39,501 nucleotides of DNA from a virus (lineage: Duplodnaviria > Heunggongvirae > Uroviricota > Caudoviricetes): IMG/VR virus record IMGVR_UViG_2671180547_000005. One strand, written 5' to 3'. Below, in pieces: positions 414-39,400 of the stretch. A model generated the notes under the pieces. It was not told where the DNA came from and ran no database searches. It saw only the letters and a list, made by a program, of their open reading frames with translations. Both the position numbers and the translations under genes were made by a program. Each line of letters opens with the position of its first letter. Positions within the stretch are counted from its first letter, which is position 1.

Positions 414-935
414 ATGGAACTAAAAAATATAACCCGTTATTATCCTGAAAATATGCCATATGGTAATAATGTTCAGTATTTCCAGAGTGAAGATGGTAAG
501 GATTTCTACGAATCCCTGCCATTATTCACCAAAAAATATAAACTTTGCATAACACCTGACAGCGGCGTTATCTGCTCAATATCACAGGACGCCTCGGCGC
601 TGTATCCTGCGGGGTTTTCTGTGGTTGAGGTCGATGAACTCCCTGAAGGCACGGATATTTCAGGAAACTGGAAGTTTGATAATGGCATAATCTCCCGTAT
701 TCCGGTTAACTACGCAAGAAAACTGGAAGCAATGCGCCAGTCATATCTTAATCAGGCATATGAAAAAATTAATGACTGGAGAACGGAGCTACAACTGGGC
801 ACCATCAGCGATGAAGACAGAGCAGCACTTACCCAATGGATGGCATACATCAGTCAGGTGAAGAAAATGGAACTACCCGCCATTAAAACAGAAGCTGAAT
901 TTAACGCCATTAAATGGCCTGAGCAGCCACAGTAA
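414..935 (+). CDS. Tail fibre assembly chaperone (Tfa / Mu U-like)
   Basis: 173 aa directly downstream of the fibre segment; C-terminus has the W-x-x-Y ... I-x-WP pattern typical of Tfa proteins. Confidence 0.7.
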   Translation: MELKNITRYYPENMPYGNNVQYFQSEDGKDFYESLPLFTKKYKLCITPDSGVICSISQDASALYPAGFSVVEVDELPEGTDISGNWKFDNGIISRIPVNYARKLEAMRQSYLNQAYEKINDWRTELQLGTISDEDRAALTQWMAYISQVKKMELPAIKTEAEFNAIKWPEQPQ

Positions 936-940
936 TAAAG

Positions 941-960
941 AAGGCCGGAAGGCCTTCTGA
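941..960. terminator. Hairpin between convergent tfa and alternative fibre segment
   Basis: Perfect 8-bp stem AGAAGGCC / GGCCTTCT with a 4-nt loop, AU-rich flanks, between two convergent stop codons. Confidence 0.4.
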
Positions 961-966
961 ATATCA

Positions 967-1319
967 TTATATACTTGCAGCCGTCACCCATGCTCCATTT
1001 AACAGATACTGCAACGGCCGGTAATACACGCCGCCGACGTTATCTGCCGTATTCTTACCGACATCCTGTACTTTAATTCCGGTAAGAACATTGCCGCCCC
1101 CCAGATTCAGATCCCAGCTTTCCCATGTTCCGGGCATATGTGCGGTCACCGACCCCAGTCTTATGGCGGTTACTGTTCCTGATGAGATAGTGATATCCTG
1201 CGTCCCGTCAAAGGGAACACCATTAATTGTGTGGGCATTTGCCAGCCTGTTCGCGGCAACGGCGGTGCCGTCCGATGGCAGGGCATTCGCCGCCCTGTTT
1301 ACCGTTTCCCGTAAACCGA
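967..1319 (-). CDS. Alternative tail fibre C-terminal segment (silent here; fused to the constant part after inversion)
   Basis: Minus-strand frame is open from the stop at 1351..1353 down to TAA at 967..969; begins with the same ~23 aa as the plus-strand segment and ends with a different ~95 aa tail. Confidence 0.6.
1250..1319. repeat. Right inverted-repeat copy of the invertible segment
   Basis: Reverse complement matches window 1..70 (69/70). Confidence 0.75.
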
Positions 1320-1331
1320 GGTTTTCAGGAA
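1306..1331. promoter_or_regulatory. gix/hix-like 26-bp recombination site (right copy)
   Basis: TTCCCGTAAACC-GA-GGTTTTCAGGAA: near-palindromic 12-2-12 layout, close to the Mu gix sequence as I recall it, immediately upstream of the invertase gene. Confidence 0.65.
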
Positions 1332-1396
1332 AGCCAGGATTAACTCTGTTTTATTCCTCATGCGACAATTCCGGCTTTTTATAATAAGGAAATCGT

Positions 1397-1969
1397 ATGC
1401 TGATTGGGTATATCAGGGTGTCAACAAATGACCAGAATACGGCGCTACAAAGAAATGCGCTGGAATGTGCAGGATGTGAGCTGTTTTTCGAAGACAGAAT
1501 AAGCGGTAAGACAAGGGAGCGTCCCGGACTTAAACGCGCATTAAAGCGACTCCGGCCAGGGGATACCCTGCTGGTCTGGAAACTGGATCGCCTTGGACGC
1601 AGTATGCAGCACCTTGTCCTTTTAACAGAAGAACTCCGGCAACGCGGCGTTAACTTCCGCAGCATTACGGACAATATTGATACATCCACTCCCATGGGAC
1701 GTTTCTTTTTCCATATAATGGGCGCGCTGGCGGAAATGGAGCGGGAACTCATTATTGAACGTACACGCGCGGGTCTTGCTGCTGCCCGTGCTCAGGGGCG
1801 TCATGGCGGCAGACCTCAGAAACTGACAGAGAAAGAGCGGGAGCAAATCGCCCGTTTGCTGGCTAATGGCGAGTCCCGTAAACAAATCGCACTGATATTT
1901 GATATTGGCCTTTCCACCCTTTATCGTTATTTTCCTGCCTCACCAGCTCCGTCACCAAAAGTACCGTGA
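1397..1969 (+). CDS. gin: Serine DNA invertase, Gin/Hin/Cin/Pin family
   Basis: 190 aa; N-terminal MLIGYIRVSTNDQ with catalytic Ser, resolvase core, C-terminal HTH; adjacent to the gix-like site. Symbol given by analogy to Mu. Confidence 0.9.
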   Translation: MLIGYIRVSTNDQNTALQRNALECAGCELFFEDRISGKTRERPGLKRALKRLRPGDTLLVWKLDRLGRSMQHLVLLTEELRQRGVNFRSITDNIDTSTPMGRFFFHIMGALAEMERELIIERTRAGLAAARAQGRHGGRPQKLTEKEREQIARLLANGESRKQIALIFDIGLSTLYRYFPASPAPSPKVP

Positions 1970-2054
1970 CGCTTTTTTGAATTTCCGCAAAACACATATT
2001 TTTCAGCGGTCGCTATTCTGACTCTGTTTAATTCAGAAACAGGCAGAAAAGACG

Positions 2055-4109
2055 ATGTCAGACTCCAAGTGGAAAATGCTCTCCGCCATGCCCGGAGAGT
2101 TTTCAGTCAAGGTTGCCGGTGGCACGGTGGCATTTATTGAAAGCCCTTTCCGCCCTTCGGGTAATAAAGGGGGGATCACCTTCGCAGACTGCGTGATCCG
2201 CTTCAGCACGAAAGAGCCATTATGGGTAATGCCGGTATCCGGTAATCCCAGTGCAGAAATCACCAGTTCAGGCGTGACTGGCATCATTCCAATCACATCT
2301 GACGTGGCCGGAACGCTCACGCCCTCCGACTGGAATGCACCGGATAACGCCGGGCCTTCCGGTAGCACGAATGGCAGCAGTTCAGAGCCGGAATATTACT
2401 TTGTTGTCATTCTCGCGGGTCAGTCAAATGGCATGGCCTACGGCGAGGGGCTGCCGTTACCGGATTCGTTTGACCGCCCGGACCCACGCATTAAGCAACT
2501 GGCACGCCGCAGTACGGTAACGCCCAACGGTACGTCGTGTACATACAACGACATCATTCCGGCAGACCACTGCCTGCATGATGTTCAGGATATGAGCGGG
2601 ATAAACCACCCGAAAGCTGATCTGGCAAAAGGCCAGTACGGGACTGTCGGTCAGGGGTTGCATATTGCCAAAAAACTGCTTCCCTATATCCCACAGAATG
2701 CCGGGATACTTCTGGTGCCCTGTTGTCGTGGCGGGTCAGCATTCACCACTGGAGCCGACGGCTCATTCAGTGAGGCCAGCGGTGCTTCCGCTGATTCTTC
2801 ACGCTGGGGGGCCGGTAAACCTCTGTATCAGGACCTGGTAAGCCGCACCAAAGTCGCGCTGGCGAAAAACCCGAAAAACAAACTTCTGGCTGTGGTCTGG
2901 ATGCAGGGAGAGGCAGACCTTGCCTCAGGAAGCCAGCAGCATAATAGTTTATTCACGGCCATGGTTCAGCAGTTCAGAACTGACCTGGCTCCGCTTGCTG
3001 CGCAGTGCGTGAGTGGAAATGCCACCACGGTGCCGTGGATTTGCGGTGATACCACGTATTACTGGAAAAACGCTGGCACCGATAAATATGAGGCAGTATA
3101 CGGTGGCTACAAAGGCAAGGAAGCACAGAAAATTTTCTTTGTACCGTTCCTGACGGATGAGAATGGACAGAGCACGCCAACGAATGCTCCGGCGGAAGAC
3201 CCGGATATTGTGGCTGTCGGGTATTACGGTGCAGCATCCCGAACCCAGGGCAGTTTTGTTTCGACACAGCGTGACAGCCATTTCAGCTCATGGGCACGCA
3301 GGGGCGTCATTTCAGACCGTCTGGCCTCAGCTATTATGCTCCATGCAGGGCGCACGGCTGAACTGATGCGTGGGCAGACCGTGACACCACCGGATGAGAA
3401 GCCGTCACCTGATACACCATCAAAACCGTCCACGCCACCCGCAGACACCACGACGATGAGTACGCTATTTGCTTACCGGGCATCTGAGTCTGAAGGACGG
3501 TTGACACCACAGGGTTGGGCTGCCGGAGGTGGCAAGGCTCAAATCGTGGATGATGCCGGAGCCAGCGGGGGTAAGGCAATGAAACTGACCAAGGAAACAG
3601 GAAGAGCCCCCTGGTACCTTGAGCATGATGCTGGTAATGGTGCGGACCTGCTGGGTAAAGGTGGTCTTGTCAGTTGTCGTTTTAAACTCGATGGCGCGCT
3701 TACGGCTAATCAGTACGCACTGGCGCTGTACTGGCCGGTTTCTGCCCTGCCGCAAGGGGTTACTCTGGAAGGAAATGCCGGTCATAACCTGCTGGCATCG
3801 TTCTACGTACAGAGCGATGCCACAGACCTTAACGTGATGTATCACAAAGGAAACACGGCGCAGAACACGAAGCTGGGGTCATTCGGCGCATTTAATAACG
3901 AATGGCATACGCTGGGCTTCCGTTTTGCCGGTAACAACAGTATTGAGGTGACGCCGGTCATTGATGGTAAGGACGGGACACCATTCATGCTGTCGCAGTC
4001 TCCGGTCGGCACGTTTACGGCAGACAAGTTGCGCGTGACCGATATCACTAAAAATGCGACTTACCCGGTACTGATTGACAGTATCGTGGTGGAAGTGAAT
4101 AACGCGTAA
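2055..4109 (+). CDS. NanS-p-like sialate O-acetylesterase (SASA/SGNH domain) with Pro/Thr linker and C-terminal lectin-like domain
   Basis: 684 aa; VVILAGQSNGMAYGEG matches the GQSN motif of the sialate O-acetylesterase family; size and modular layout resemble prophage NanS-p proteins. Confidence 0.6.
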   Translation: MSDSKWKMLSAMPGEFSVKVAGGTVAFIESPFRPSGNKGGITFADCVIRFSTKEPLWVMPVSGNPSAEITSSGVTGIIPITSDVAGTLTPSDWNAPDNAGPSGSTNGSSSEPEYYFVVILAGQSNGMAYGEGLPLPDSFDRPDPRIKQLARRSTVTPNGTSCTYNDIIPADHCLHDVQDMSGINHPKADLAKGQYGTVGQGLHIAKKLLPYIPQNAGILLVPCCRGGSAFTTGADGSFSEASGASADSSRWGAGKPLYQDLVSRTKVALAKNPKNKLLAVVWMQGEADLASGSQQHNSLFTAMVQQFRTDLAPLAAQCVSGNATTVPWICGDTTYYWKNAGTDKYEAVYGGYKGKEAQKIFFVPFLTDENGQSTPTNAPAEDPDIVAVGYYGAASRTQGSFVSTQRDSHFSSWARRGVISDRLASAIMLHAGRTAELMRGQTVTPPDEKPSPDTPSKPSTPPADTTTMSTLFAYRASESEGRLTPQGWAAGGGKAQIVDDAGASGGKAMKLTKETGRAPWYLEHDAGNGADLLGKGGLVSCRFKLDGALTANQYALALYWPVSALPQGVTLEGNAGHNLLASFYVQSDATDLNVMYHKGNTAQNTKLGSFGAFNNEWHTLGFRFAGNNSIEVTPVIDGKDGTPFMLSQSPVGTFTADKLRVTDITKNATYPVLIDSIVVEVNNA

Positions 4110-4110
4110 G

Positions 4111-4146
4111 CAGGATAAAAAAATGCCGCCGGTAAGGGAAAACAAG
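4111..4146 (-). terminator. Intrinsic terminator oriented for leftward transcription
   Basis: 10-bp stem TGCCGCCGGT / ACCGGCGGCA; the 7-nt T-run follows the hairpin only on the minus strand. Confidence 0.5.
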
Positions 4147-4253
4147 AAACCGGCGGCAAAAAGATCGTTATATCCAAAGCAAAAAATGCAGTGCACCTTT
4201 TTACCTAACAGATATTACCGGTGTCAACACCATGTCAATAATTGGGAGGGATA

Positions 4254-4436
4254 ATGACATTTTTACAGCTTATTTTATTGTATTTCTGCACGGCAGTATG
4301 TGCGTTATATCTGGTGAGTGGTGGTTATAAGGCCATCAGAAATTATGTTCGCCGCAAAATTGAGGACGCAGCAGCTGAAAAACTCAGTAAAACAGCGCAG
4401 GTAACTCCGCTCCCAAAAGACCCGACCCAGCCCTGA
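4254..4436 (+). CDS. Small hydrophobic (probably membrane) protein, unknown function
   Basis: ATG at 4254 preceded by GGGAGGG; 60 aa with a hydrophobic N-terminus followed by a charged tail. Confidence 0.45.
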   Translation: MTFLQLILLYFCTAVCALYLVSGGYKAIRNYVRRKIEDAAAEKLSKTAQVTPLPKDPTQP

Positions 4437-4471
4437 TTGCAGGGCTTTATTCCCGCATAAGGAGGATATAC

Positions 4472-4726
4472 ATGCCAGAAATTAAAGGCACCGTCACTGA
4501 AGACCTGGTAAAACAGGCACTGTATTCCGGTGAAGTAAATAAGTTGCTGAAAGCGCAGGTCCGCAAGGATTTTGAGGCACAAATCGACACTTACGTTGAT
4601 GAAGTGCTGGCAAAACTTATTGGGCCAGCAGTTGCGGCCAGTGATGCTGATAATGAGCCGAAAACCGACGCGCAGCCAGAGCAACCAGACCCGGCTCAGC
4701 CCGGAACTGACAGTACCATGATGTAA
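4472..4726 (+). CDS. Small acidic protein, unknown function
   Basis: Strong RBS AAGGAGG 6 nt upstream; 84 aa with an acidic Pro-rich C-terminus. Confidence 0.45.
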   Translation: MPEIKGTVTEDLVKQALYSGEVNKLLKAQVRKDFEAQIDTYVDEVLAKLIGPAVAASDADNEPKTDAQPEQPDPAQPGTDSTMM

Positions 4727-4783
4727 CAATACAAACCGGTGGTGTCCTCTGCCGGTTTGACACTAATGAAAACATCTTTGCCG

Positions 4784-4812
4784 CTATCCAGCCATATGTA
4801 ATCGCTGGATAG
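4784..4812 (+). terminator. Hairpin after the small two-gene cassette
   Basis: Perfect 9-bp inverted repeat CTATCCAGC / GCTGGATAG with an 11-nt loop, followed by a U-rich tract; a second hairpin lies at about 4732..4758. Confidence 0.4.
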
Positions 4813-4893
4813 TATTTCGTATTCAGAAATATAGCTGCTTATGGAGCAGTCAATCCTGCTTCCCCATCCGGGCAGGCAAATGAACCGGTATCA

Positions 4894-5187
4894 TTAGTCC
4901 GATTCACGCTTTTGTAGAATCGTTCCCAGAATGCTATACAGCTCATTAGCCTGTTGCTCCATCATTGAGACGGAGGCTATACGGTGCAAAGTGATTTCAG
5001 GAGGTGGCACACCTCCATCTTCTTGCTGTGGAGGAAAAACATAAGATTTAATAAAAAAGTTGAAGCATATGAACTCTCCCGCACTCGAACTGTATTTGCA
5101 GGCATCTGAATAATCGGAAAAATAATCATTATAGATTTCCGCATTTTCAATCATTTTTCGATTTCTCGTCGTTACATGATTGTCCAT
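4894..5187 (-). CDS. Hypothetical protein in an AT-rich segment (moron candidate)
   Basis: 97 aa; ATG preceded by AAGAGG; region is visibly AT-rich compared with the rest of the phage. Confidence 0.4.
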   Translation of the reverse strand: MDNHVTTRNRKMIENAEIYNDYFSDYSDACKYSSSAGEFICFNFFIKSYVFPPQQEDGGVPPPEITLHRIASVSMMEQQANELYSILGTILQKRESD

Positions 5188-5376
5188 AGCAGCCTCTTAC
5201 GCTGGCAATTAACCAATTGACTTCTATAAATTAGTTGATTTGTTTGCTTTGCGGTATTCAAATGTACAATCATTCAGCACTTATGCGTTACAGCACCGTT
5301 TAAAATTAGTGATCAAACTCATAAATTTTCGCTAATGACATTTCGTGTTATTTGTTGTATCAATTAAATAAATCAA

Positions 5377-5400
5377 ATCGATCGTTTTTGTCGATCGATT
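5377..5400. promoter_or_regulatory. GATC pair in a palindromic context upstream of com-mom
   Basis: GATC at 5380..5383 and 5393..5396 within TCGATCG ... TCGATCGA, about 45 bp upstream of the com start; Mu mom is controlled through GATC methylation. Confidence 0.4.
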
Positions 5401-5443
5401 GAGTGATAAAGATATCAACAACAAAGCAGGAGGTTATGCGGCC

Positions 5444-5644
5444 ATGTATCGAAACATACGGTGCCGACATTGTAACAAGCTACTGGCACGAGCCAGCTTC
5501 AGTTATCTGGAAGTTAAATGTCCGCGCTGTAAAACCCTCAATCAAATCACATCTCAGAGCGCCACAGAGCACCCCACATACACAAGGAAATCCTGTCGTG
5601 GGGAACAGAAAGCAAGTTACATCCCGTATCATCAGCACGCCTGA
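5444..5644 (+). CDS. com: Com-like zinc-finger translational activator of mom
   Basis: 66 aa from the internal ATG with an upstream AGGAGG; CxxC ... CPRC zinc-finger pattern as in Mu Com. Confidence 0.7.
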
Positions 5645-6335
5645 ACTTATTCACTATAACGACAATATCGTCGGTTATGGCTCCCGTGAGTTACGGGTTG
5701 AGACAATAAGTTGCTGGCTGGCCCGGCTGGTCGTCGTCAATAAACATTACAGCCATCGTTTCGTAAATAATTCCTACCTTCATCTGGGCATATTTTCAGA
5801 ACGGGAGCTGGTTGGCGTAATGCAATGGGGTTATGCCCTTAATCCAAACAATGGTGCACGCGTCGTAACTGGCACGCAGAACCGCGAATATATGGAGCTT
5901 AACCGGTTATGGCTGCATGACTGTATGCCGAGAAACTCCGAATCAAGGGCAATCAGTTACGCGCTCAAACTAATCAGACAACTTTATCCGCAGGTGCAGT
6001 GGGTTCAGTCGTTTGCAGATGAGCGTTGTGGCTGTCTTGGTGTCGTGTACCAGGCAAGCAATTTTGATTATGTAGGCAGTCATGAAACAACATTCTATGA
6101 ACTTGATGGCGAGTGGTATCACGAGATTTGCAAGAATGCAATCAAACGAGGAGGACAGCGAGGTGAACATCTGCGGGCTAATATCGACAGAGCCAGTGTT
6201 CATAAATTCCGTCAGTTTCGTTACATCCGGTTTCTGGACAAGAGAGCCAGAAAACGCCTTAACACAAAGCTATTCAAAGTCCAGCCTTACCCAAAACCAC
6301 AAACAGTTAAAACTGGTTTGAAAGAGAGTGAATGA
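5598..6335 (+). CDS. mom: Mom-like DNA modification protein
   Basis: Overlaps the 3' end of com in another frame; GTG at 5598 preceded by AAGGAAA; about 245 aa; last gene before the phage end, as in Mu. Start codon inferred. Confidence 0.55.
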
Positions 6336-32666: not shown

Positions 32667-33197
32667 TTATTTATTCAGTCCGGCGTCCTGTTCAAAAGGC
32701 TCGACATAAAAACTTTCAGCGCCTTTATTCACCTTGATACCGGCAATGCCTTTCACAGCATCCGGCTCCGCCAGGACGGCTTCCTTGTTCACTTCCTCTT
32801 TCGTGCGGATGAAACGCTCAAGCCCCATACGGCGCAGCATTTCAATCACACCTTCCACATCACGGCTGACGCTGCATGATGGCGTTCCCAGCCGCCATGA
32901 CACCGTTCCGGTGGTCAGATTGGCTGTTTTGGTTTTGCCGCCGTTCGTCAGCTCATCACGGTTGGTTTTGCACCAGTCCTGAATCCCTTTAAAAAGCACT
33001 TTGATTTGCTTTTTAAGATTTTCAATCTGCGGCGTATAACGGGCGGTGATTTCTGCCACTTCGTCATTCATCGCCGTTTCCAGGCGCAGCGCCTCTCGCT
33101 GAATATCTCCCAGGGTGCGGATATCACGGCTGACTTCTTCCCGGGTCTGCGGTGCCGCCTCGGCTGCGGCCTTTAATTTTGTAACGCGTTTAGCCAT
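32667..33197 (-). CDS. gam: Gam-like host-nuclease inhibitor (DNA-end binding)
   Basis: 176 aa; recognisably similar to Mu Gam (RLETAMNDEVAEI, DELTNGGKTKTANLTTG, FIRTKEEVNKEA). Confidence 0.8.
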   Translation of the reverse strand: MAKRVTKLKAAAEAAPQTREEVSRDIRTLGDIQREALRLETAMNDEVAEITARYTPQIENLKKQIKVLFKGIQDWCKTNRDELTNGGKTKTANLTTGTVSWRLGTPSCSVSRDVEGVIEMLRRMGLERFIRTKEEVNKEAVLAEPDAVKGIAGIKVNKGAESFYVEPFEQDAGLNK

Positions 33198-33208: not shown

Positions 33209-33502
33209 TTATTGCAGTGTGCCTGATGCTTTATGCACGCGGTGGCGTTTAATGATGGCATCCGCTCCAAAAGACTGTGCAGATGCCTGAAATTCCGCTG
33301 AGAGAAACTGAATAATTGCAGGACTGTGATACTGGAGAATACTTGCATAAACGTCACAGAGTGACGTCGGCCTGTTATCCGTATCACGTTCTGTTTTCAC
33401 ATCCACTCCAATCTTTTCATGCACTTCAACACAGTCATTGCCTGCCAACTTTTCGTCATGCGAAACATGATTAAATTCAAAAATAACGCGTACTTTGCTC
33501 AT
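33209..33502 (-). CDS. Small early protein, paralogue A
   Basis: Start at the internal Met giving MSKVRVIFEF; N-terminus parallels the adjacent gene. Confidence 0.45.
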   Translation of the reverse strand: MSKVRVIFEFNHVSHDEKLAGNDCVEVHEKIGVDVKTERDTDNRPTSLCDVYASILQYHSPAIIQFLSAEFQASAQSFGADAIIKRHRVHKASGTLQ

Positions 33503-33506
33503 GGAA

Positions 33507-33779
33507 TTACCCCTGTTGATTAAATTCATTACCGTTAATAACCCCGGAAGCCATGCCTCTGTCTTTCATGAATGCACTGGCTTTCATTGCCACAAACTCT
33601 GCGAAGTTTCTGCTTTCTGCCAGCATAACCACCCCAAAAATCATGGCGGGTCCATTATCTTTCTTCTTTATTCCGGTTGAACGTATATCCAGACTTACCC
33701 CTCTGTGCGTGCTGCCATCAGAGTTTTTGCAGATAACATCTTCCTTGTATTCGAAAATAATGCGTACGACTTTACTCAT
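33507..33779 (-). CDS. Small early protein, paralogue B
   Basis: 90 aa beginning MSKVVRIIFEY. Confidence 0.45.
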   Translation of the reverse strand: MSKVVRIIFEYKEDVICKNSDGSTHRGVSLDIRSTGIKKKDNGPAMIFGVVMLAESRNFAEFVAMKASAFMKDRGMASGVINGNEFNQQG

Positions 33780-34057
33780 CCTCTGGTCCTCGTTCTGTTT
33801 GGATAACTGACCCGGCGTCTAACCTCACGGCAGAACCGAATCATGGCATTAAAGGCTTCTTCCTCCGTCACCGCTTCCGGTATCCCCGGAACCAGTAACT
33901 GCTCCTGTTCATCACGTCCATGACGCGCCATAACCTCAATCACATGCCGTACCGTGGCAGGCTTTCCGGCAACTATCGGCAATGCACCTTCCGGCAGGAC
34001 GTAACCAAACTCAATAAGACCACTCGACCACGCCCATGCAATGAGATTTTTTTTCAC
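33776..34057 (-). CDS. Hypothetical early protein
   Basis: 93 aa; operon position. Confidence 0.4.
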   Translation of the reverse strand: MKKNLIAWAWSSGLIEFGYVLPEGALPIVAGKPATVRHVIEVMARHGRDEQEQLLVPGIPEAVTEEEAFNAMIRFCREVRRRVSYPNRTRTRG

Positions 34058-34058
34058 C

Positions 34059-34325
34059 TCACACCTCCCAGTAAACCGTGCAGCCGCTGATGCGGGTGGC
34101 CTTCACACGGCGGCGCAGGCCGTTGGTCTGTATGGTGATTTCAATTTCACCGGTTCCCTGCACGTTGCCTACCGGCGGCGTGGTTTTCAGTGCAAAACGT
34201 TGCGGATAGCGCTTACTGCGTTCCAGTACCGCACCGGCAAGTTCGGTCAGACGGCGCGCGCTGTTCAGGGAGTCGAATAAATTCATTTTGTTACCGCAGG
34301 ATTGCATATTCATATAACACCTCAT
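34059..34325 (-). CDS. Hypothetical early protein
   Basis: 88 aa; operon position. Confidence 0.4.
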   Translation of the reverse strand: MRCYMNMQSCGNKMNLFDSLNSARRLTELAGAVLERSKRYPQRFALKTTPPVGNVQGTGEIEITIQTNGLRRRVKATRISGCTVYWEV

Positions 34326-34553
34326 TTAGCTGACTTGTTTCGCACCAACAGAACGGCATATTCCGCTGTAAACTTCTGTCGCACCTTCGCGATCAAGTCC
34401 GGCAGATATCACCATTCGTGTGCGGTCATTAAATTCAAAAAGTAAATCGCCACATTCTTTATTTTCGGCCAGTGAAATCACCTTCACGTTATCGAAATTA
34501 ACCAGGTAAAAGCGTCCGTAAATATCAGGAATATTAAATACCGCCATAATCAC
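34326..34553 (-). CDS. Hypothetical early protein in the position of Mu kil
   Basis: 75 aa directly downstream of the B-like gene; positional analogy only. Confidence 0.35.
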   Translation of the reverse strand: MIMAVFNIPDIYGRFYLVNFDNVKVISLAENKECGDLLFEFNDRTRMVISAGLDREGATEVYSGICRSVGAKQVS

Positions 34554-35491
34554 ACCTGTGAGAGTAATTCAGGGTTGGTATAAACCTCTTTAAAGGCCGC
34601 ATTAATATGTTTTTCTGTCAGCGCCGCGCCTTCACCGCTGGCGGTGAGCCACGCCTGGTTAAGCGTATGTGTCAGAACGCGTAACGCTCCCGGCTTTTCA
34701 GCGATAGCCTGCATGACGGCCAGCTCGGCCTCACCACTGATCCCCCACGCCATGGCAATGGCCAGCACATCCGCCTTTTTGGCCTTGCGAAGTTGTTTTG
34801 TACGGGCAAGACGGCTGAACAGGCGCGATAAATCATCAAAGGCGCGGCGTCCACCTTTAAACAATCCGCGCGGGTTACCAATAAGCACCATCCCGATCCC
34901 CGTGGCGTCCTGAATTGCCCGGAGTTGCTCCAGACCGTCAATACCAAGATGATCCGCCTCATCCACAATCACCAGTCCACGCGTTCCCATCAGGCGACGG
35001 CGGATGGCGCGGGATAATGCCCCTTTGTTCGCGCGGGTGTAATCAATCCCCAGCGCATCGGCCAGCTCCAGCAGACACTCCGTGACGCTGGAGTGCGCGG
35101 GTGACAGGGTGATCATCCAGGTGTTTGGTTGCTCCTGGCAGTAATTACGGGCAGTGGCCGTTTTACCCACACCCGGTACGCCCACAATAACGTTAATACA
35201 GCCCATCAGGCGAACCGCCTGAAACAGTGCGCGCAGCTCCTGGACTGTCTGAGTTTCCACAAACTGCGGCGGTTCCGGCAGTGCGCTTTGTTTATTCCAG
35301 TTCTCATACCAGGAGCGCAGGGAAGCAGCCACAGCAGCGTTATCGCCTTTATATTTTCCCTTACGGAAAGCCGATAATGTGCCGTCGGAAATTCCCGCCT
35401 CTCTGGCGATGGCATACTGCGTCAGTACGCCGCCATCAATAAGTTCATCAATGGTCTTGATTACATCGTTAATATCGGTCATATTATTCAC
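34550..35491 (-). CDS. MuB-type AAA+ ATPase (transposition target DNA activator)
   Basis: 313 aa; Walker A GVPGVGKT; clear similarity to Mu B. Confidence 0.85.
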   Translation of the reverse strand: MNNMTDINDVIKTIDELIDGGVLTQYAIAREAGISDGTLSAFRKGKYKGDNAAVAASLRSWYENWNKQSALPEPPQFVETQTVQELRALFQAVRLMGCINVIVGVPGVGKTATARNYCQEQPNTWMITLSPAHSSVTECLLELADALGIDYTRANKGALSRAIRRRLMGTRGLVIVDEADHLGIDGLEQLRAIQDATGIGMVLIGNPRGLFKGGRRAFDDLSRLFSRLARTKQLRKAKKADVLAIAMAWGISGEAELAVMQAIAEKPGALRVLTHTLNQAWLTASGEGAALTEKHINAAFKEVYTNPELLSQV

Positions 35492-35564: not shown

Positions 35565-37652
35565 TCAGGCCAGCGGATCACTTTCTTTTAATTTCGCTTC
35601 GAGCAGTTGCAATCCCCGCTGGAAATTACGCTCGTATTCTTCATCAGGTTCATCGTCAGCGACCGGTTGCTGAACGGTCACCGTATTACCCACAGGGCGG
35701 TATATGTTTTCCAGCCAGGGCTCCTGCGGCTTGTGCTCCAGCACGTTGACAACCTCATCCTCGGCATCACGGATTTTTTCCTCTGCGCGTTTACGCATGC
35801 CTTTAAGGCGCTGCTGCTGTTTGTAGTATTCCGCGCTGACAGGGAAGGCTTCGCGTTTATTGCCGTCCCATACCGCCTCGCAAATCACGCTGCCATCCGG
35901 GCGGCGCACGGTAATTCGTTCGGCATCATGAATGTCATAGCTGATAAGTACCTTACGGCCATGCTCGTCACGCAGCTCGGGCGCGTAGTAAATATTATTC
36001 AGCCAGCGTATTTCACAGCGTCTTACAGGGCGCTCCACCATCGGCCGGAACATATCCCGCAGTTCAACATCGGACAGCCATTCAATTTCCGTGTCCTCTT
36101 CCGCCAGGCGTTTTTTTCTGAACTCCGCCGGGCTGTAATGTTTACCGTTCGGCTTCATGGGTAATTCATCGTGCGGCCGGTTGTTGTACCACTCAACACC
36201 GTCACGAATGGCATCAATCAGTTCAGACCAGGACGGTAAATCACGCATCGCTGACTGCTGCCGGGCGTTCAGCCGTTTGCCCTGTTGCAGGGCACTGAAT
36301 GCCGAGCGTAAATCGCGGTTGGTTTTACGTAACGTCTCGCGATCTGCTCCTTTCCCGAAATAGGTGCGGTATTTACGGGCTATGCGCATCGGTAATGTGC
36401 GGTTAAGCCGTTCGATAATGCCCCGTCCCTGCGGATTACCGGCAATCCCTGTCGGGTGATTAATCCCCAGTCGTGGCAGTATCCCCACAATCTCCTTATC
36501 CAGGACGTCGGCGGTTTCCCCGGAGCCATTATCCGAGTAATACAGAAACGGTTTGCCATGATGGCGAATACCGTGCTGTATGGCACCGGCTACGGCGAAA
36601 ACATTTTCAGCCAGGTCAAGGCTCCAGCCCACCACAAAGCGCGTGCCACCGTCGATAACAAAGGTCACTTCCGGTGCGAATGGCCGCCCGTGAACCGGGT
36701 GCGCGCATTTCAGCTTCATGCCGTGACCGTCACCAATCCAGACATAATTCACCGGCATTCTGGACCAGTCGCGGCGCGTGAATCCCTCAAGCTGACGGTA
36801 TTCACTGCCAGTTACCCGGCCTTTTTGTTTCACCACTTCCGGCAGTTTCTTCATTGCGCGGCGAATGGTGTCATAAGAGGGCATGATATCGAGCATATAA
36901 GGCTCATCAGCGTGCCGGTGCTGCCATTCAGCAACAAAATCCTCGTAAGCCTCGGTCATTGGTCGGCCGTTTGACTGGCGATACTGCGCCAGAAATTCGG
37001 GCAGCCAGTTAATATCTTCGGCTTTTATTTCCTGGCGTTTACCCGGTGCCAGTAAAAGCAGGCGTTCAGCGGCGTTCTGTGCCTTGTTAAAGGCCGCAAT
37101 CCAGCGTTTCAGCGTGATTTCACTCAACGCGCGGCTGTTTCCCTTTTTGGCGTTCGCCGTCTCAACCATTGCCACAATGCGCTCGTCCAGTTGTGATCGT
37201 GCCAGGCTGTTAACGAGGAACCGGATAGCTTTAGCGCAGCTGAAACCGGGTTGTTGCGTGAATTTCAGCACCTCACTGACGATCGCAATGCGTGCGTCTG
37301 CCACCTGGCGCTGGTTTTCAGTCAGGGCATTGAGGCGTTCGACCATCAGTTGTGGTGATCCGCGATATGCCTCCACCGCATCAACCACGGCAGACGAGCG
37401 TCTGGCCTTTGTCACCACCGGAGCCGGTGATTCATCGGCTTTTTGCGTCATCAGTTGCAGGGCATAACGTTCGCGTAATGCCTGCTGTGTCACTTCAGGT
37501 AAACAGTCAATGCTGTATTCAAAACCTTTAGCGCCTTTCTTGCGGCGTCTGCTGGTTTCGCTGGTTGCATACTTCCTGATTGAATAGCGAACGCCTTGCT
37601 CCGTTCCCGGCATCCCCGGTAATCCAACCAGTTCTTTAACTGAAGCAAACAT
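35565..37652 (-). CDS. Mu-type DDE transposase (MuA-like)
   Basis: 695 aa; follows ner and precedes B as in Mu. Confidence 0.85.
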   Translation of the reverse strand: MFASVKELVGLPGMPGTEQGVRYSIRKYATSETSRRRKKGAKGFEYSIDCLPEVTQQALRERYALQLMTQKADESPAPVVTKARRSSAVVDAVEAYRGSPQLMVERLNALTENQRQVADARIAIVSEVLKFTQQPGFSCAKAIRFLVNSLARSQLDERIVAMVETANAKKGNSRALSEITLKRWIAAFNKAQNAAERLLLLAPGKRQEIKAEDINWLPEFLAQYRQSNGRPMTEAYEDFVAEWQHRHADEPYMLDIMPSYDTIRRAMKKLPEVVKQKGRVTGSEYRQLEGFTRRDWSRMPVNYVWIGDGHGMKLKCAHPVHGRPFAPEVTFVIDGGTRFVVGWSLDLAENVFAVAGAIQHGIRHHGKPFLYYSDNGSGETADVLDKEIVGILPRLGINHPTGIAGNPQGRGIIERLNRTLPMRIARKYRTYFGKGADRETLRKTNRDLRSAFSALQQGKRLNARQQSAMRDLPSWSELIDAIRDGVEWYNNRPHDELPMKPNGKHYSPAEFRKKRLAEEDTEIEWLSDVELRDMFRPMVERPVRRCEIRWLNNIYYAPELRDEHGRKVLISYDIHDAERITVRRPDGSVICEAVWDGNKREAFPVSAEYYKQQQRLKGMRKRAEEKIRDAEDEVVNVLEHKPQEPWLENIYRPVGNTVTVQQPVADDEPDEEYERNFQRGLQLLEAKLKESDPLA

Positions 37653-37654
37653 AA

Positions 37655-37885
37655 TTACGCGACCTTACGAATGTAGCGGCTGGGCCAAATCTCCTCGGGC
37701 GGCACCCCCAGGCATTCCGCGATAATCCCCTCATACTTGGGAACATGGCGGTATACCGCGTTGTACAGATTGTTCTGACCCACGCCAGCTTTACGGGCCA
37801 GCGCCCTCATGCTTCCTTCTCTGGCTCTGACTTCCCCCAAAATTCTTTGAGGATGCCAATCAGGCTTAACTTCATTTCTCGCCAT
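37655..37885 (-). CDS. ner: Ner-like DNA-binding regulator
   Basis: 76 aa; DWH ... IIAECLGVPPEEIWPSRY resembles Mu Ner. Confidence 0.8.
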   Translation of the reverse strand: MARNEVKPDWHPQRILGEVRAREGSMRALARKAGVGQNNLYNAVYRHVPKYEGIIAECLGVPPEEIWPSRYIRKVA

Positions 37886-38070: not shown

Positions 38071-38616
38071 ATGAACAAGCAAACAACAACATCTCTTTCT
38101 TTTCCTGGTGGTAGAAAAGAAAGCATTGCTGAGCGTCTGAAAAGGCTGATTGGCTCCCGCAGCGTCAGAGCTGCAGCAAGAGATTGGGGGCTTTCATTTT
38201 CAACACTAAACAATTATCTGTCTCGTGGCACTGAGCCATCCTTAAGTGTCGCCCTTCAGATTGCGTCTATCGAAGGAGTAAGTGTTGAGTGGCTATGTGG
38301 ATTCAGTGATGCATCACAAGTGAATCGGTGTGAGATCAAGGAAAATCAAGATGAAAGCAAGAAGATAATTATGACGATTATCAGCGCACTTGATGAAAAA
38401 GACTTAGAGCAGCTATCGAAAAATTTGGTTCTGAATGGAGCCAAGTACTTAGCTCGGTTGTTAGAGCCTGAAAATCAAGATCTAATCCGCTTAGAAGGAA
38501 GGAAAAGAATAGCTGCATTACAGCTTGAAGGTATGTCTGACGAACGCGTCAGAGAGATTTTGGAAGAAACTGAGAGAAGTCGCAAATCTAACGCGGTAGA
38601 ACCAAAAGCGGGTTAA
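38071..38616 (+). CDS. Phage repressor, XRE/CI-type HTH
   Basis: 181 aa with an N-terminal HTH; divergent from ner at the phage left end. Confidence 0.7.
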   Translation: MNKQTTTSLSFPGGRKESIAERLKRLIGSRSVRAAARDWGLSFSTLNNYLSRGTEPSLSVALQIASIEGVSVEWLCGFSDASQVNRCEIKENQDESKKIIMTIISALDEKDLEQLSKNLVLNGAKYLARLLEPENQDLIRLEGRKRIAALQLEGMSDERVREILEETERSRKSNAVEPKAG

Positions 38617-38689: not shown

Positions 38690-38862
38690 AGTATCAAATG
38701 AGTTGCCGATTTTATAATAAATGACTAATTATTGCACAATCGGTATCAAATAGACCTTATCCGCACATCTAGCCATCACCTGTTTTATTTCAGTATCTTA
38801 CAGGTGATTTCACCTCCTTTCACTAAACCCCTTGTCGGTATCAAATGATTCACCTGGTTATA
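38690..38862. repeat. Phage left-end (attL-like) cluster of three spaced transposase-site repeats
   Basis: CAGTATCAAATGAG (38690), CGGTATCAAATAG (38742), CGGTATCAAATGATTCA (38835); inferred terminus at 38862. Confidence 0.6.
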
Positions 38863-39173
38863 TGTCGCCAGTCGATACCTTCCAGCAGCATCGCCAGCTG
38901 CGCCTGTGTAAGGAACACTTTGCCATCACGGGCTGACGGCCAGGCGAAGCGCCCACGCTCCAGCCGTTTGGTCAGGAGGCACAGTCCGTCACTGGTGGAC
39001 CACAGCAGTTTAACCTGACTGCCGCTGCGGCCCCGGAAAATGAAAACATGGCCGGACATGGGATCGTCTTTCAGCGCCGTCTGTACTTTCGCAGCCAGGC
39101 CGTTGAAGCCATTTCTCATATCGGTGATACCGGCAACCAGCCAAATTTTGATCCCGGAAGGTAACGGGATCAT
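38853..39173 (-). CDS. tnpB: IS66-family TnpB (orf2), 3' end interrupted at the phage junction
   Basis: 107 aa with the characteristic IWLVAGITDMR ... LLEGIDWR; the stop codon coincides with the first bases of the phage end. Confidence 0.75.
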
Positions 39174-39400
39174 CGCTTCAGTTCCTGTATCAGCAGAGTC
39201 AGGAGCTTTTCGCTGACATTGCCATTGAAGCGGAGCGTCCCGTGCCGGAACGTTACCTCACAGCTGATACTGAGGGTTTTCGGGTCCTCTGCGAGCGATT
39301 CTGGCTGTTCGGCAGCTGCATCGAGAGTCACAGGAAGTAGCTGGGGGCTCTCTGAAGAAGGTAATAGCTGAGGTGTACTGGCAATAGCGGACACTACCAT
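39170..39400 (-). CDS. Probable IS66-family orf1 (TnpA) C-terminal part
   Basis: Stop overlaps the tnpB start in an ATGA arrangement; frame stays open to the window edge. Confidence 0.4.
   Translation of the reverse strand: MVVSAIASTPQLLPSSESPQLLPVTLDAAAEQPESLAEDPKTLSISCEVTFRHGTLRFNGNVSEKLLTLLIQELKR

Follow-up and report, generated by a model that had tools for sequence, protein, structure and literature searches.

Within the 39,501-nucleotide stretch of phage DNA analyzed here (the window), two adjacent small genes lie directly upstream of gam and begin with almost the same peptide. Are these genes relatives or unrelated proteins sharing a short leader, how did they come to stand side by side, and what might they do? 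A preliminary description had taken them for a tandem duplication with divergence, shaped by diversifying selection, and had proposed an anti-restriction or other anti-defence role. We examined the locus by open reading frame and operon analysis, profile comparison, structure prediction, rate analysis and comparison with related loci.

A pair of small early genes in a Mu-like prophage

The window derives from a Mu-like (transposable) prophage of Escherichia coli, and its features are collected in Table 1. The region carrying the two genes, hereafter wA and wB, is 100% identical to a prophage in E. coli JE86-ST05, and similar DNA is present in 232 of 5426 complete E. coli genomes (~4%), including O157:H7, O111 and O121 strains. 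The early operon is tightly packed and runs from repressor/ner through A, B and a set of small genes to gam, which is followed by a Mu gp11-like gene. The wB start codon shares bases with the stop codon of the preceding gene (ATGA), and the gaps that follow are short, 4 nt between wB and wA and 11 nt between wA and gam. A consensus scan of the B-to-gam interval found no promoter or terminator on the minus strand, and no Rfam families are present. Thus, wA and wB are co-expressed from the early operon.

Table 1. Features of the window, with positions counted from its first letter
Feature	Positions	Strand	Description	Basis
wB	33507-33779	minus	upstream copy; 90 aa, phrog_4107, start MSKVVRIIFEY, MSKVVRIIFEYKEDV...	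ORF and translation
wA	33209-33502	minus	gam-proximal copy; 97 aa, phrog_2230, start MSKVRVIFEF, MSKVRVIFEFNHV...	ORF and translation
Shine-Dalgarno-like GAGGA	33787-33791	minus	7 nt 5' of wB ATG	read from sequence
Shine-Dalgarno-like AGGGG	33510-33514	minus	7 nt 5' of wA ATG, within the end of wB	read from sequence
5' repeat copy in wB	33749-33767	minus	about codons 5-10, N-terminal beta-strand	
5' repeat copy in wA	33475-33493	minus	about codons 4-9, N-terminal beta-strand	
gam, host-nuclease inhibitor	32667-33197	minus	57% identity to Mu Gam	PF07352, E=5.5e-42
93-aa upstream gene	33776-34057	minus	presence/absence cassette in related prophages	phrog_1518
Kil-like small gene	34059-34325	minus	early operon	phrog_2679
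Small gene, first after B	34326-34553	minus	75 aa	phrog_3375
AAA+ B protein	34550-35491	minus	early operon	
Transposase A	35565-37652	minus	early operon	
ner-like gene	37655-37885	minus	early operon	
XRE-type repressor	38071-38616	plus		
Tail-fibre assembly gene	414-935	plus		
Gin-type invertase	1397-1969	plus		
SASA/DUF6645 (sialate O-acetylesterase-like) protein	2055-4109	plus	684 aa	
Mom-family protein	5403-6335	plus	310 aa	

An alternative start of wA, an in-frame ATG at 33529 (minus strand; 33503-33529), would add nine codons (MNLINRGNS-) and overlap the end of wB. It was rejected, because a start at 33502 agrees better with the position of the ribosome-binding site, with RefSeq and with the family alignments. 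RefSeq annotates both coding sequences identically in the JE86-ST05 prophage. Since the reading frames, packing, ribosome-binding sites and RefSeq coding sequences agree, the two adjacent small genes with near-identical N-termini were correctly described, and their coordinates are exact.

At the other end of the prophage, four genes lie opposite to the late-gene strand (the plus-strand genes at 414-6335 in Table 1), and this end differs from the gin-com-mom end of Mu. Just past the repressor end, positions 38850-39400 (minus strand) carry IS66 orf2 (TnpB_IS66) and a small ORF; the annotation of the identical genome has an RHS-repeat pseudogene across it (record 846624-848000, about window position 38863 onward).

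Relatedness of wA and wB and their wider superfamily

The pairwise similarity of the two proteins is low. BLASTP aligned them at 22% identity over 76 residues (E=6e-4), and identity between the two is 17-22%. Their local alignment score of 50, compared with 23.7+/-4.1 for shuffled sequences, was reached in one of 3000 shuffles. After removal of the first 11-12 residues, the corresponding score was reached in 121 of 3000 shuffles (p ~0.04), so the pairwise evidence beyond the N-terminus is marginal.

Profile comparisons proved decisive. An hhalign comparison of the two E. coli family alignments gave 86.7% probability (P=4.4e-6) over 43 columns. When the wA side was broadened to alignment A6 (17 sequences, comprising wA types, the L111 type, D108 gp7, the L139 type and the L119 type) and compared with the wB family (A2), the probability was 93.6% (P=2.1e-7) over 75 columns. 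As controls, six further small early proteins, two reversed sequences and Gnarl3 were compared, and all remained at or below 1.6%. We also gathered ~165 related loci via Gam and the upstream phrog_1518 gene, and searched their 2547 ORFs iteratively by HMM. The wA profile reached an 85-aa protein of the L119/L125 type (MAKVIFEFK...) at E=5e-4 along its full length; all wB variants were found next, at E=6e-7 to 2e-4 over residues 5-78.

A rival reading holds that the shared N-terminus is no more than a signal, for a boundary or for the start of translation, or a linker for recombination, placed on two unrelated proteins. The similarity is indeed strongest in the first 11 residues, where it coincides with a 19-nt direct repeat at the 5' ends of the two genes (17 of 19 positions identical, spaced by 274 nt, about one gene unit), and the weak pairwise score without the N-terminus would fit, as would an indel junction at the start codons described below. 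However, when the first 12 residues were deleted from the wA-side profile, 22 of the 23 wB variants were still found at E=3e-4 to 0.04 and the remaining one at 0.15. All 23 ranked directly below the profile's own family and above every unrelated ORF, aligned at residues 21-78, and the best full-length unrelated ORF reached only E=4. The 75-column hhalign match and the bridging sequences, which align along their full length, argue in the same direction. Moreover, the two repeat copies differ at synonymous positions only, and codons 1-4 of wB show pN=0 with pS=0.27 across alleles; since the N-terminal codons differ at synonymous sites, the shared N-terminus is selected as a peptide. Recent gene conversion was considered as the source of the shared 5' end and set aside: two of seven comparable synonymous positions differ, which is unremarkable. 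The linker reading is therefore largely refuted already, and we consider it quite improbable.

Judged from these comparisons, wA and wB are true, very old paralogues whose similarity extends beyond the first residues. The paralogy proposed in the preliminary description thus stands, and the alignment it had suggested as a check does not confine the similarity to a few N-terminal residues. As for tandem duplication with divergence, the paralogous relationship was upheld and a recent duplication was not, since the event is ancient (17-22% identity) or may have been the tandem capture of two alleles.

A full-length core common to both proteins is predicted, in which a long N-terminal beta-hairpin packs on two helices. 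The AF2 model of wA, built from the superfamily alignment, has a pLDDT of 72.5 and contains a hairpin (residues 4-18/25-39) and helices at 48-58 and 60-77. The wB model, built from a shallow family alignment, reached a pLDDT of 48 and is unreliable, so a common fold is suggested by the profile alignment and not by two independent models. No structural analogue of the predicted beta-beta-alpha-alpha fold is known, a sequence-profile search of the PDB gave no match, and no DNA-binding fold or motif was detected. The proteins contain no hydrophobic stretch of transmembrane length (GRAVY -0.32 and -0.20) and differ in charge (wA: pI 6.3, net charge -2; wB: pI 9.25, net charge +2.6).

In the PHROGs collection, wA matches phrog_2230 (E=1.8e-38) and wB matches phrog_4107 (E=1.7e-54), and neither family carries a function label. 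Neither protein matched Pfam, NCBIfam or PADLOC, and 11 diverse superfamily members searched against Pfam at E<=10 yielded zero families. Word-indexed and exhaustive searches with wB alone returned only E. coli relatives at >=57% identity, and an exhaustive HMMER search of the wB family against 1.84e9 representatives returned close relatives and fragments only. Three large proteins matched by the wB profile (P0063, P0065 and P0068; 710-2963 aa) are artefacts, in which 12-20 tandem repeats contribute ~2 bits each to a summed score.

Two classical phage genes connect with these families. D108 gp7 (ACV50266.1, 89 aa) falls in phrog_2230 (E=4.5e-40), and BLASTP aligns it with wA over 82 aa at 29% identity (E=5e-8). 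Mu gp7 (E6, Mup07, NP_050611.1; 87 aa) corresponds to phrog_10252 and occupies the same slot as the wA/wB family. It matches the L119-type protein by phmmer at E=6e-4 over the full length and phrog_2230 at E=0.009, and hhalign aligned it with A6 at 82.9% probability (P=9.2e-6) over 76 columns. The L119-type protein itself matches phrog_2230 (3e-15), phrog_10252 (1e-3) and phrog_4107 (2.7e-3) along its full length. These profile links and the bridging L119-type protein join the three PHROGs into one superfamily. Its members are soluble proteins of 85-97 aa that begin with M-[SAP]-K followed by a V/I-x-V/I-x-F/I-E strand motif, which both genes fit; F8, E9 and G79 are nearly invariant (alignments A4, A5 and A6). 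The location of wA and wB, in the early operon between B/kil and gam (or the replacement of gam), also fits the superfamily, which has so far been found in Enterobacterales Mu-like phages only. Further types come from genomes of Mangrovibacter (P0072) and Serratia marcescens (P0077) and from metagenome viral contigs. By sequence relationship, then, wA and wB are additional members of the known, barely characterized Mu gene 7/Gnarl2 kind.

Several other candidates were excluded from the superfamily, because none was significant by hhalign (P from 5e-4 over 27 columns to 0.67): the L054 pair, L153, Pseudomonas-type MAHYTITISD...CxCxxC proteins, L067 and Brenneria L165. In L054, also a Mu-like phage, two small genes stand in tandem in the interval from the phrog_1518 gene to gam (L054:3515-3960). 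The encoded proteins (MSKIVIELKD..., 71 aa, and MAKQVITITLDD..., 76 aa) have N-termini that look alike, and comparison with the superfamily was not significant for either (hhalign P=0.013 and 0.044). In high-GC transposable-phage loci (L155-L163, ~3990-4259, and L067:5274-5522), small proteins of phrog_3652 start with MA(H/V)YTITISDTEGGV... and end in a C-terminal CxCxxC. Their beta-strand start is superficially alike, but no relationship to the superfamily was detectable.

Evolutionary rate and copy number at the gene 7 locus

Evolutionary rates were estimated as dN/dS by the Nei-Gojobori method, gene-wide and by region or sliding window, using 19-26 distinct alleles per gene. The values were 0.385 for wA and 0.29 for wB, compared with 0.10 for gam, 0.05 for B, 0.13 for the phrog_1518 gene and 0.085-0.22 for the other small genes, so that wA and wB evolve at 3-4 times the rate of gam. 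Constraint is strongest in the first strand and first helix (pN/pS 0.05-0.2), and variation is concentrated in the hairpin tip, the loop between strand and helix, and the C-terminal tail (0.75-0.94). No dN/dS above 1 was found in either gene, gene-wide, by region or by sliding window. Diversifying selection, which the preliminary description had suggested, is therefore not demonstrated, the gene-wide values being 0.29-0.39 and the regional maximum ~0.9. The phrog_3375 gene (34326-34553, minus strand) is also rich in alleles (22 alleles, dN/dS 0.22, maximum dN 0.15) and is a second fast-evolving accessory gene of the same operon.

These values also bear on whether the two frames are non-functional or decaying, as could be supposed from the lack of an annotated function and from their absence in some related prophages. 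Against such decay stand dN/dS values of 0.29-0.39 with strongly constrained segments at 0.05-0.2, frames that are intact in ~20 alleles each, ribosome-binding sites in a tightly packed operon, and the occurrence of the region in 232 of 5426 complete E. coli genomes. Decay is thus hardly credible: wA and wB are real genes under purifying selection that evolve faster than their neighbours.

Copy number at the "gene 7" locus varies from zero to two among related phages. In a comparison of ~100 related loci, the tandem pair was confined to the E. coli Sp18-like group. A single copy is found in Mu, in D108, in the prophage of E. coli CI5 (L083), which carries wA only, in L013, and in the L111-113, L117, L119, L125 and L139 types, and many other transposable phages have none. 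Across ~100 loci, every family member is located after B/kil and before gam or a DUF3164-like gene, with a variable place inside this interval. Alignment of the one-copy locus L013 (3540-4000) with the two-copy locus L012 (2050-2790) revealed that exactly one unit is missing, reaching from the wB start codon to that of wA, with the junction at the start codons beside the 19-nt repeat. Because the indel is unit-precise and adjoins a repeat, recombination at the conserved starts can add whole units to the array or remove them. Such exchange at the 5' ends probably gave rise to the tandem array and sometimes removes it, and the second copy could equally stem from the capture of another allele as from duplication in place. 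ORF7 of SfMu is identical to gene 7 of Mu and <50% identical to that of D108 (PMC4406740), which fits a hypervariable locus.

Neighbouring genes of the interval vary as well. The phrog_1518 gene (33776-34057, minus strand; loci L111-L166) is conserved in many transposable phages and encodes the motif AWAxxGxIEFG...LVPGxPEA. PHROGs labels the family "host nuclease inhibitor", and Pfam and NCBIfam gave no match. Some E. coli prophages have the gene and others that are otherwise nearly identical lack it, and a scan of genome contigs with it as the query returned two Brenneria loci only. In L111-L129 and others (~3260-4210), a DUF3164-like protein of ~205-214 aa (MQAQRDNS...IPDGYR...) stands at the place of gam, and the two genes look like alternative occupants of one slot.

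Candidate functions and comparison with known systems

The experimental lead on function comes from Mu. In the accessory-gene screens of Silas et al., NP_050611.1 (E6/Mup07) is orf63 and was named gnarl2 (bioRxiv 10.1101/2023.04.06.535777; Nat Commun 2025, PMC12373910); it is the same sequence that was used in our comparisons. Expressed alone in the wild E. coli strains ECOR1 and ECOR22, Gnarl2 raised T5 infection 10^5-10^6-fold and caused a subtle downshift of the O-antigen ladder (LPS gel, n=1), and transposon hits in genes for making the O-antigen had a like effect (10.1101/2023.04.06.535777; PMC12373910). The protein was conditionally lethal in some hosts, and affinity purification-mass spectrometry gave no clear pattern or target (10.1101/2023.04.06.535777; PMC12373910). 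The phenotype is one of heterologous expression, and the name was given only tentatively by the authors, who deem Gnarl proteins too small to have enzymatic activity and suggest the O-antigen enzymes of the host as their point of action (10.1101/2023.04.06.535777; PMC12373910). The gene set of that study represented the superfamily by Mu gp7 only, and was without D108-, wA- or wB-type sequences.

Because they are paralogues of Mu gene 7 (Gnarl2), wA and wB are probably host-envelope-modifying. That they act in the manner of Gnarl2, binding host factors of envelope biosynthesis and so altering O-antigen or LPS during lytic growth, is a tentative reading to which we give close to an even chance. 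The homology is remote (16-25% identity to Gnarl2), and the targets may differ from that of Gnarl2, because identity is ~20% and divergence is the hallmark of the family. Under the Gnarl2-like reading, wA and wB would be small, non-enzymatic effectors made early in lytic growth. They would bind a host factor and thereby alter O-antigen or LPS biosynthesis, and the changed cell surface might, for example, make superinfection or the re-adsorption of progeny less frequent, given that LPS is the structure to which Mu-type phages adsorb. With two divergent copies, more host variants or targets would be covered. Since the early operon is repressed in lysogens, seroconversion of the classical lysogenic kind is unlikely.

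A more specific version treats the "gene 7" slot as a hypervariable effector cassette, in which the conserved N-terminal strand and first helix would serve as a scaffold or oligomerization handle, the hairpin tip and tail would be diversified to match the serotype-variable O-antigen/LPS machinery, and Sp18-like prophages would hold two effectors. We regard this version as speculative and unlikely. If it were true, Sp18-like prophages, which are common in EHEC lineages, would carry two such effectors, and a heterodimer or two host targets would provide dual-specificity envelope remodelling in lytic growth.

The preliminary description had favoured anti-defence proteins, that is, proteins acting against intracellular immunity (restriction or nuclease-based) as a module with Gam. 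Early expression next to Gam, a RecBCD inhibitor, the accessory, variable and fast-evolving nature of the genes, and the PHROG label of the upstream gene are in keeping with such a role. However, neither protein matched an anti-defence or other family in Pfam, PHROGs (function labels), NCBIfam or PADLOC, and no sequence or structural match to a described anti-restriction or anti-defence family (Ocr, ArdA, ArdB/KlcA, Ral, Acr and others) was found. The strongly acidic composition of Ocr/ArdA-type DNA mimics is seen in neither wA nor wB, given pI values of 6.3 and 9.25. The effect of Gnarl2 did not follow any particular immune system, and disrupting the O-antigen reproduced it. Nor do family members regularly adjoin gam: in Mu two genes intervene, and in other phages the gene precedes the phrog_1518 gene or stands beside a DUF3164-like gene. 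Action against intracellular immunity is therefore an improbable explanation. Of the counter-defence role proposed earlier, the broad idea survives through remote homology, in that the superfamily includes Gnarl2, which acts on the O-antigen barrier, and the anti-restriction part does not.

It is also conceivable that wA and wB are phage-intrinsic helpers of Mu replication or transposition, such as the "arm" (amplified replication of Mu) function. The classical "arm" function maps between B and C, and the site of the genes, between B and the middle/late regulators, is the interval of mapped non-essential replication-stimulating functions (review PMC10052514); co-transcription with A and B would suit this role. 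On the other hand, many transposable phages have retained A, B and gam or DUF3164 but lack the family, Mu gp7 has a strong phenotype in cells without Mu, and neither a DNA-binding fold nor a DNA-binding motif was detected. A replication helper thus seems doubtful, slightly more so than a partner of Gam in anti-defence.

With the Gnarl2-like reading as the preferred one, the present comparison places Gnarl2, reported as an isolated Mu gene, in a wider superfamily of three PHROGs and supplies several new candidates for envelope-modifying or other counter-defence activity. A conserved core with defined variable segments makes the superfamily a comparative series for mapping target-specificity residues, and a natural two-copy array can occur in its prophages, which are present in ~4% of the complete genomes of E. 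coli, strains of O157, O111 and O121 among them. If wA and wB were inactive on O-antigen, the family would illustrate fast target change in accessory proteins.

Among known systems, anti-CRISPR-style loci of Mu-like Pseudomonas phages provide a parallel in organization: a fixed slot holds interchangeable small proteins, unrelated or highly diverged and sometimes in tandem. Unlike wA and wB in the early operon, these loci sit in the late region; the wA/wB locus has no associated aca-like regulator, and we know of no sequence or structural similarity between their proteins and wA or wB.

Gnarl1 and Gnarl3 resemble wA and wB in their proposed mode, in which a small, non-enzymatic phage protein binds a host enzyme and perturbs O-antigen/LPS synthesis; Gnarl3 binds GalU (10.1101/2023.04.06.535777; PMC12373910). 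In our comparisons, they share no sequence relationship with wA and wB (Gnarl3 scored 0.1% probability against the superfamily profile, and the 40-aa sequence of Gnarl1 is helical-looking by eye), and "Gnarl" is thus a functional label and not a family.

D108 gp7 is closer: it shares the PHROG of wA (both match phrog_2230, E ~1e-38 to 1e-40) and occupies the Mu gene 7 locus. In contrast to the pair studied here, it is a single, uncharacterized copy, with no detectable pairwise similarity to wB.

Mu gp7/Gnarl2 remains the reference. It differs from wA and wB in sequence (16-25% identity; phrog_10252 versus phrog_2230 and phrog_4107) and in arrangement, Mu having one copy followed by gp8 and gp9 before gam and the present prophage two copies directly before gam, and it is the sole member with a measured O-antigen and T5-sensitization phenotype. 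The proteins are alike in small size (87 versus 90 and 97 aa), in an early-operon position between B/kil and gam, in the N-terminal M-[SA]-K and beta-strand motif with profile similarity over the full length, and in being accessory genes that vary between close relatives.
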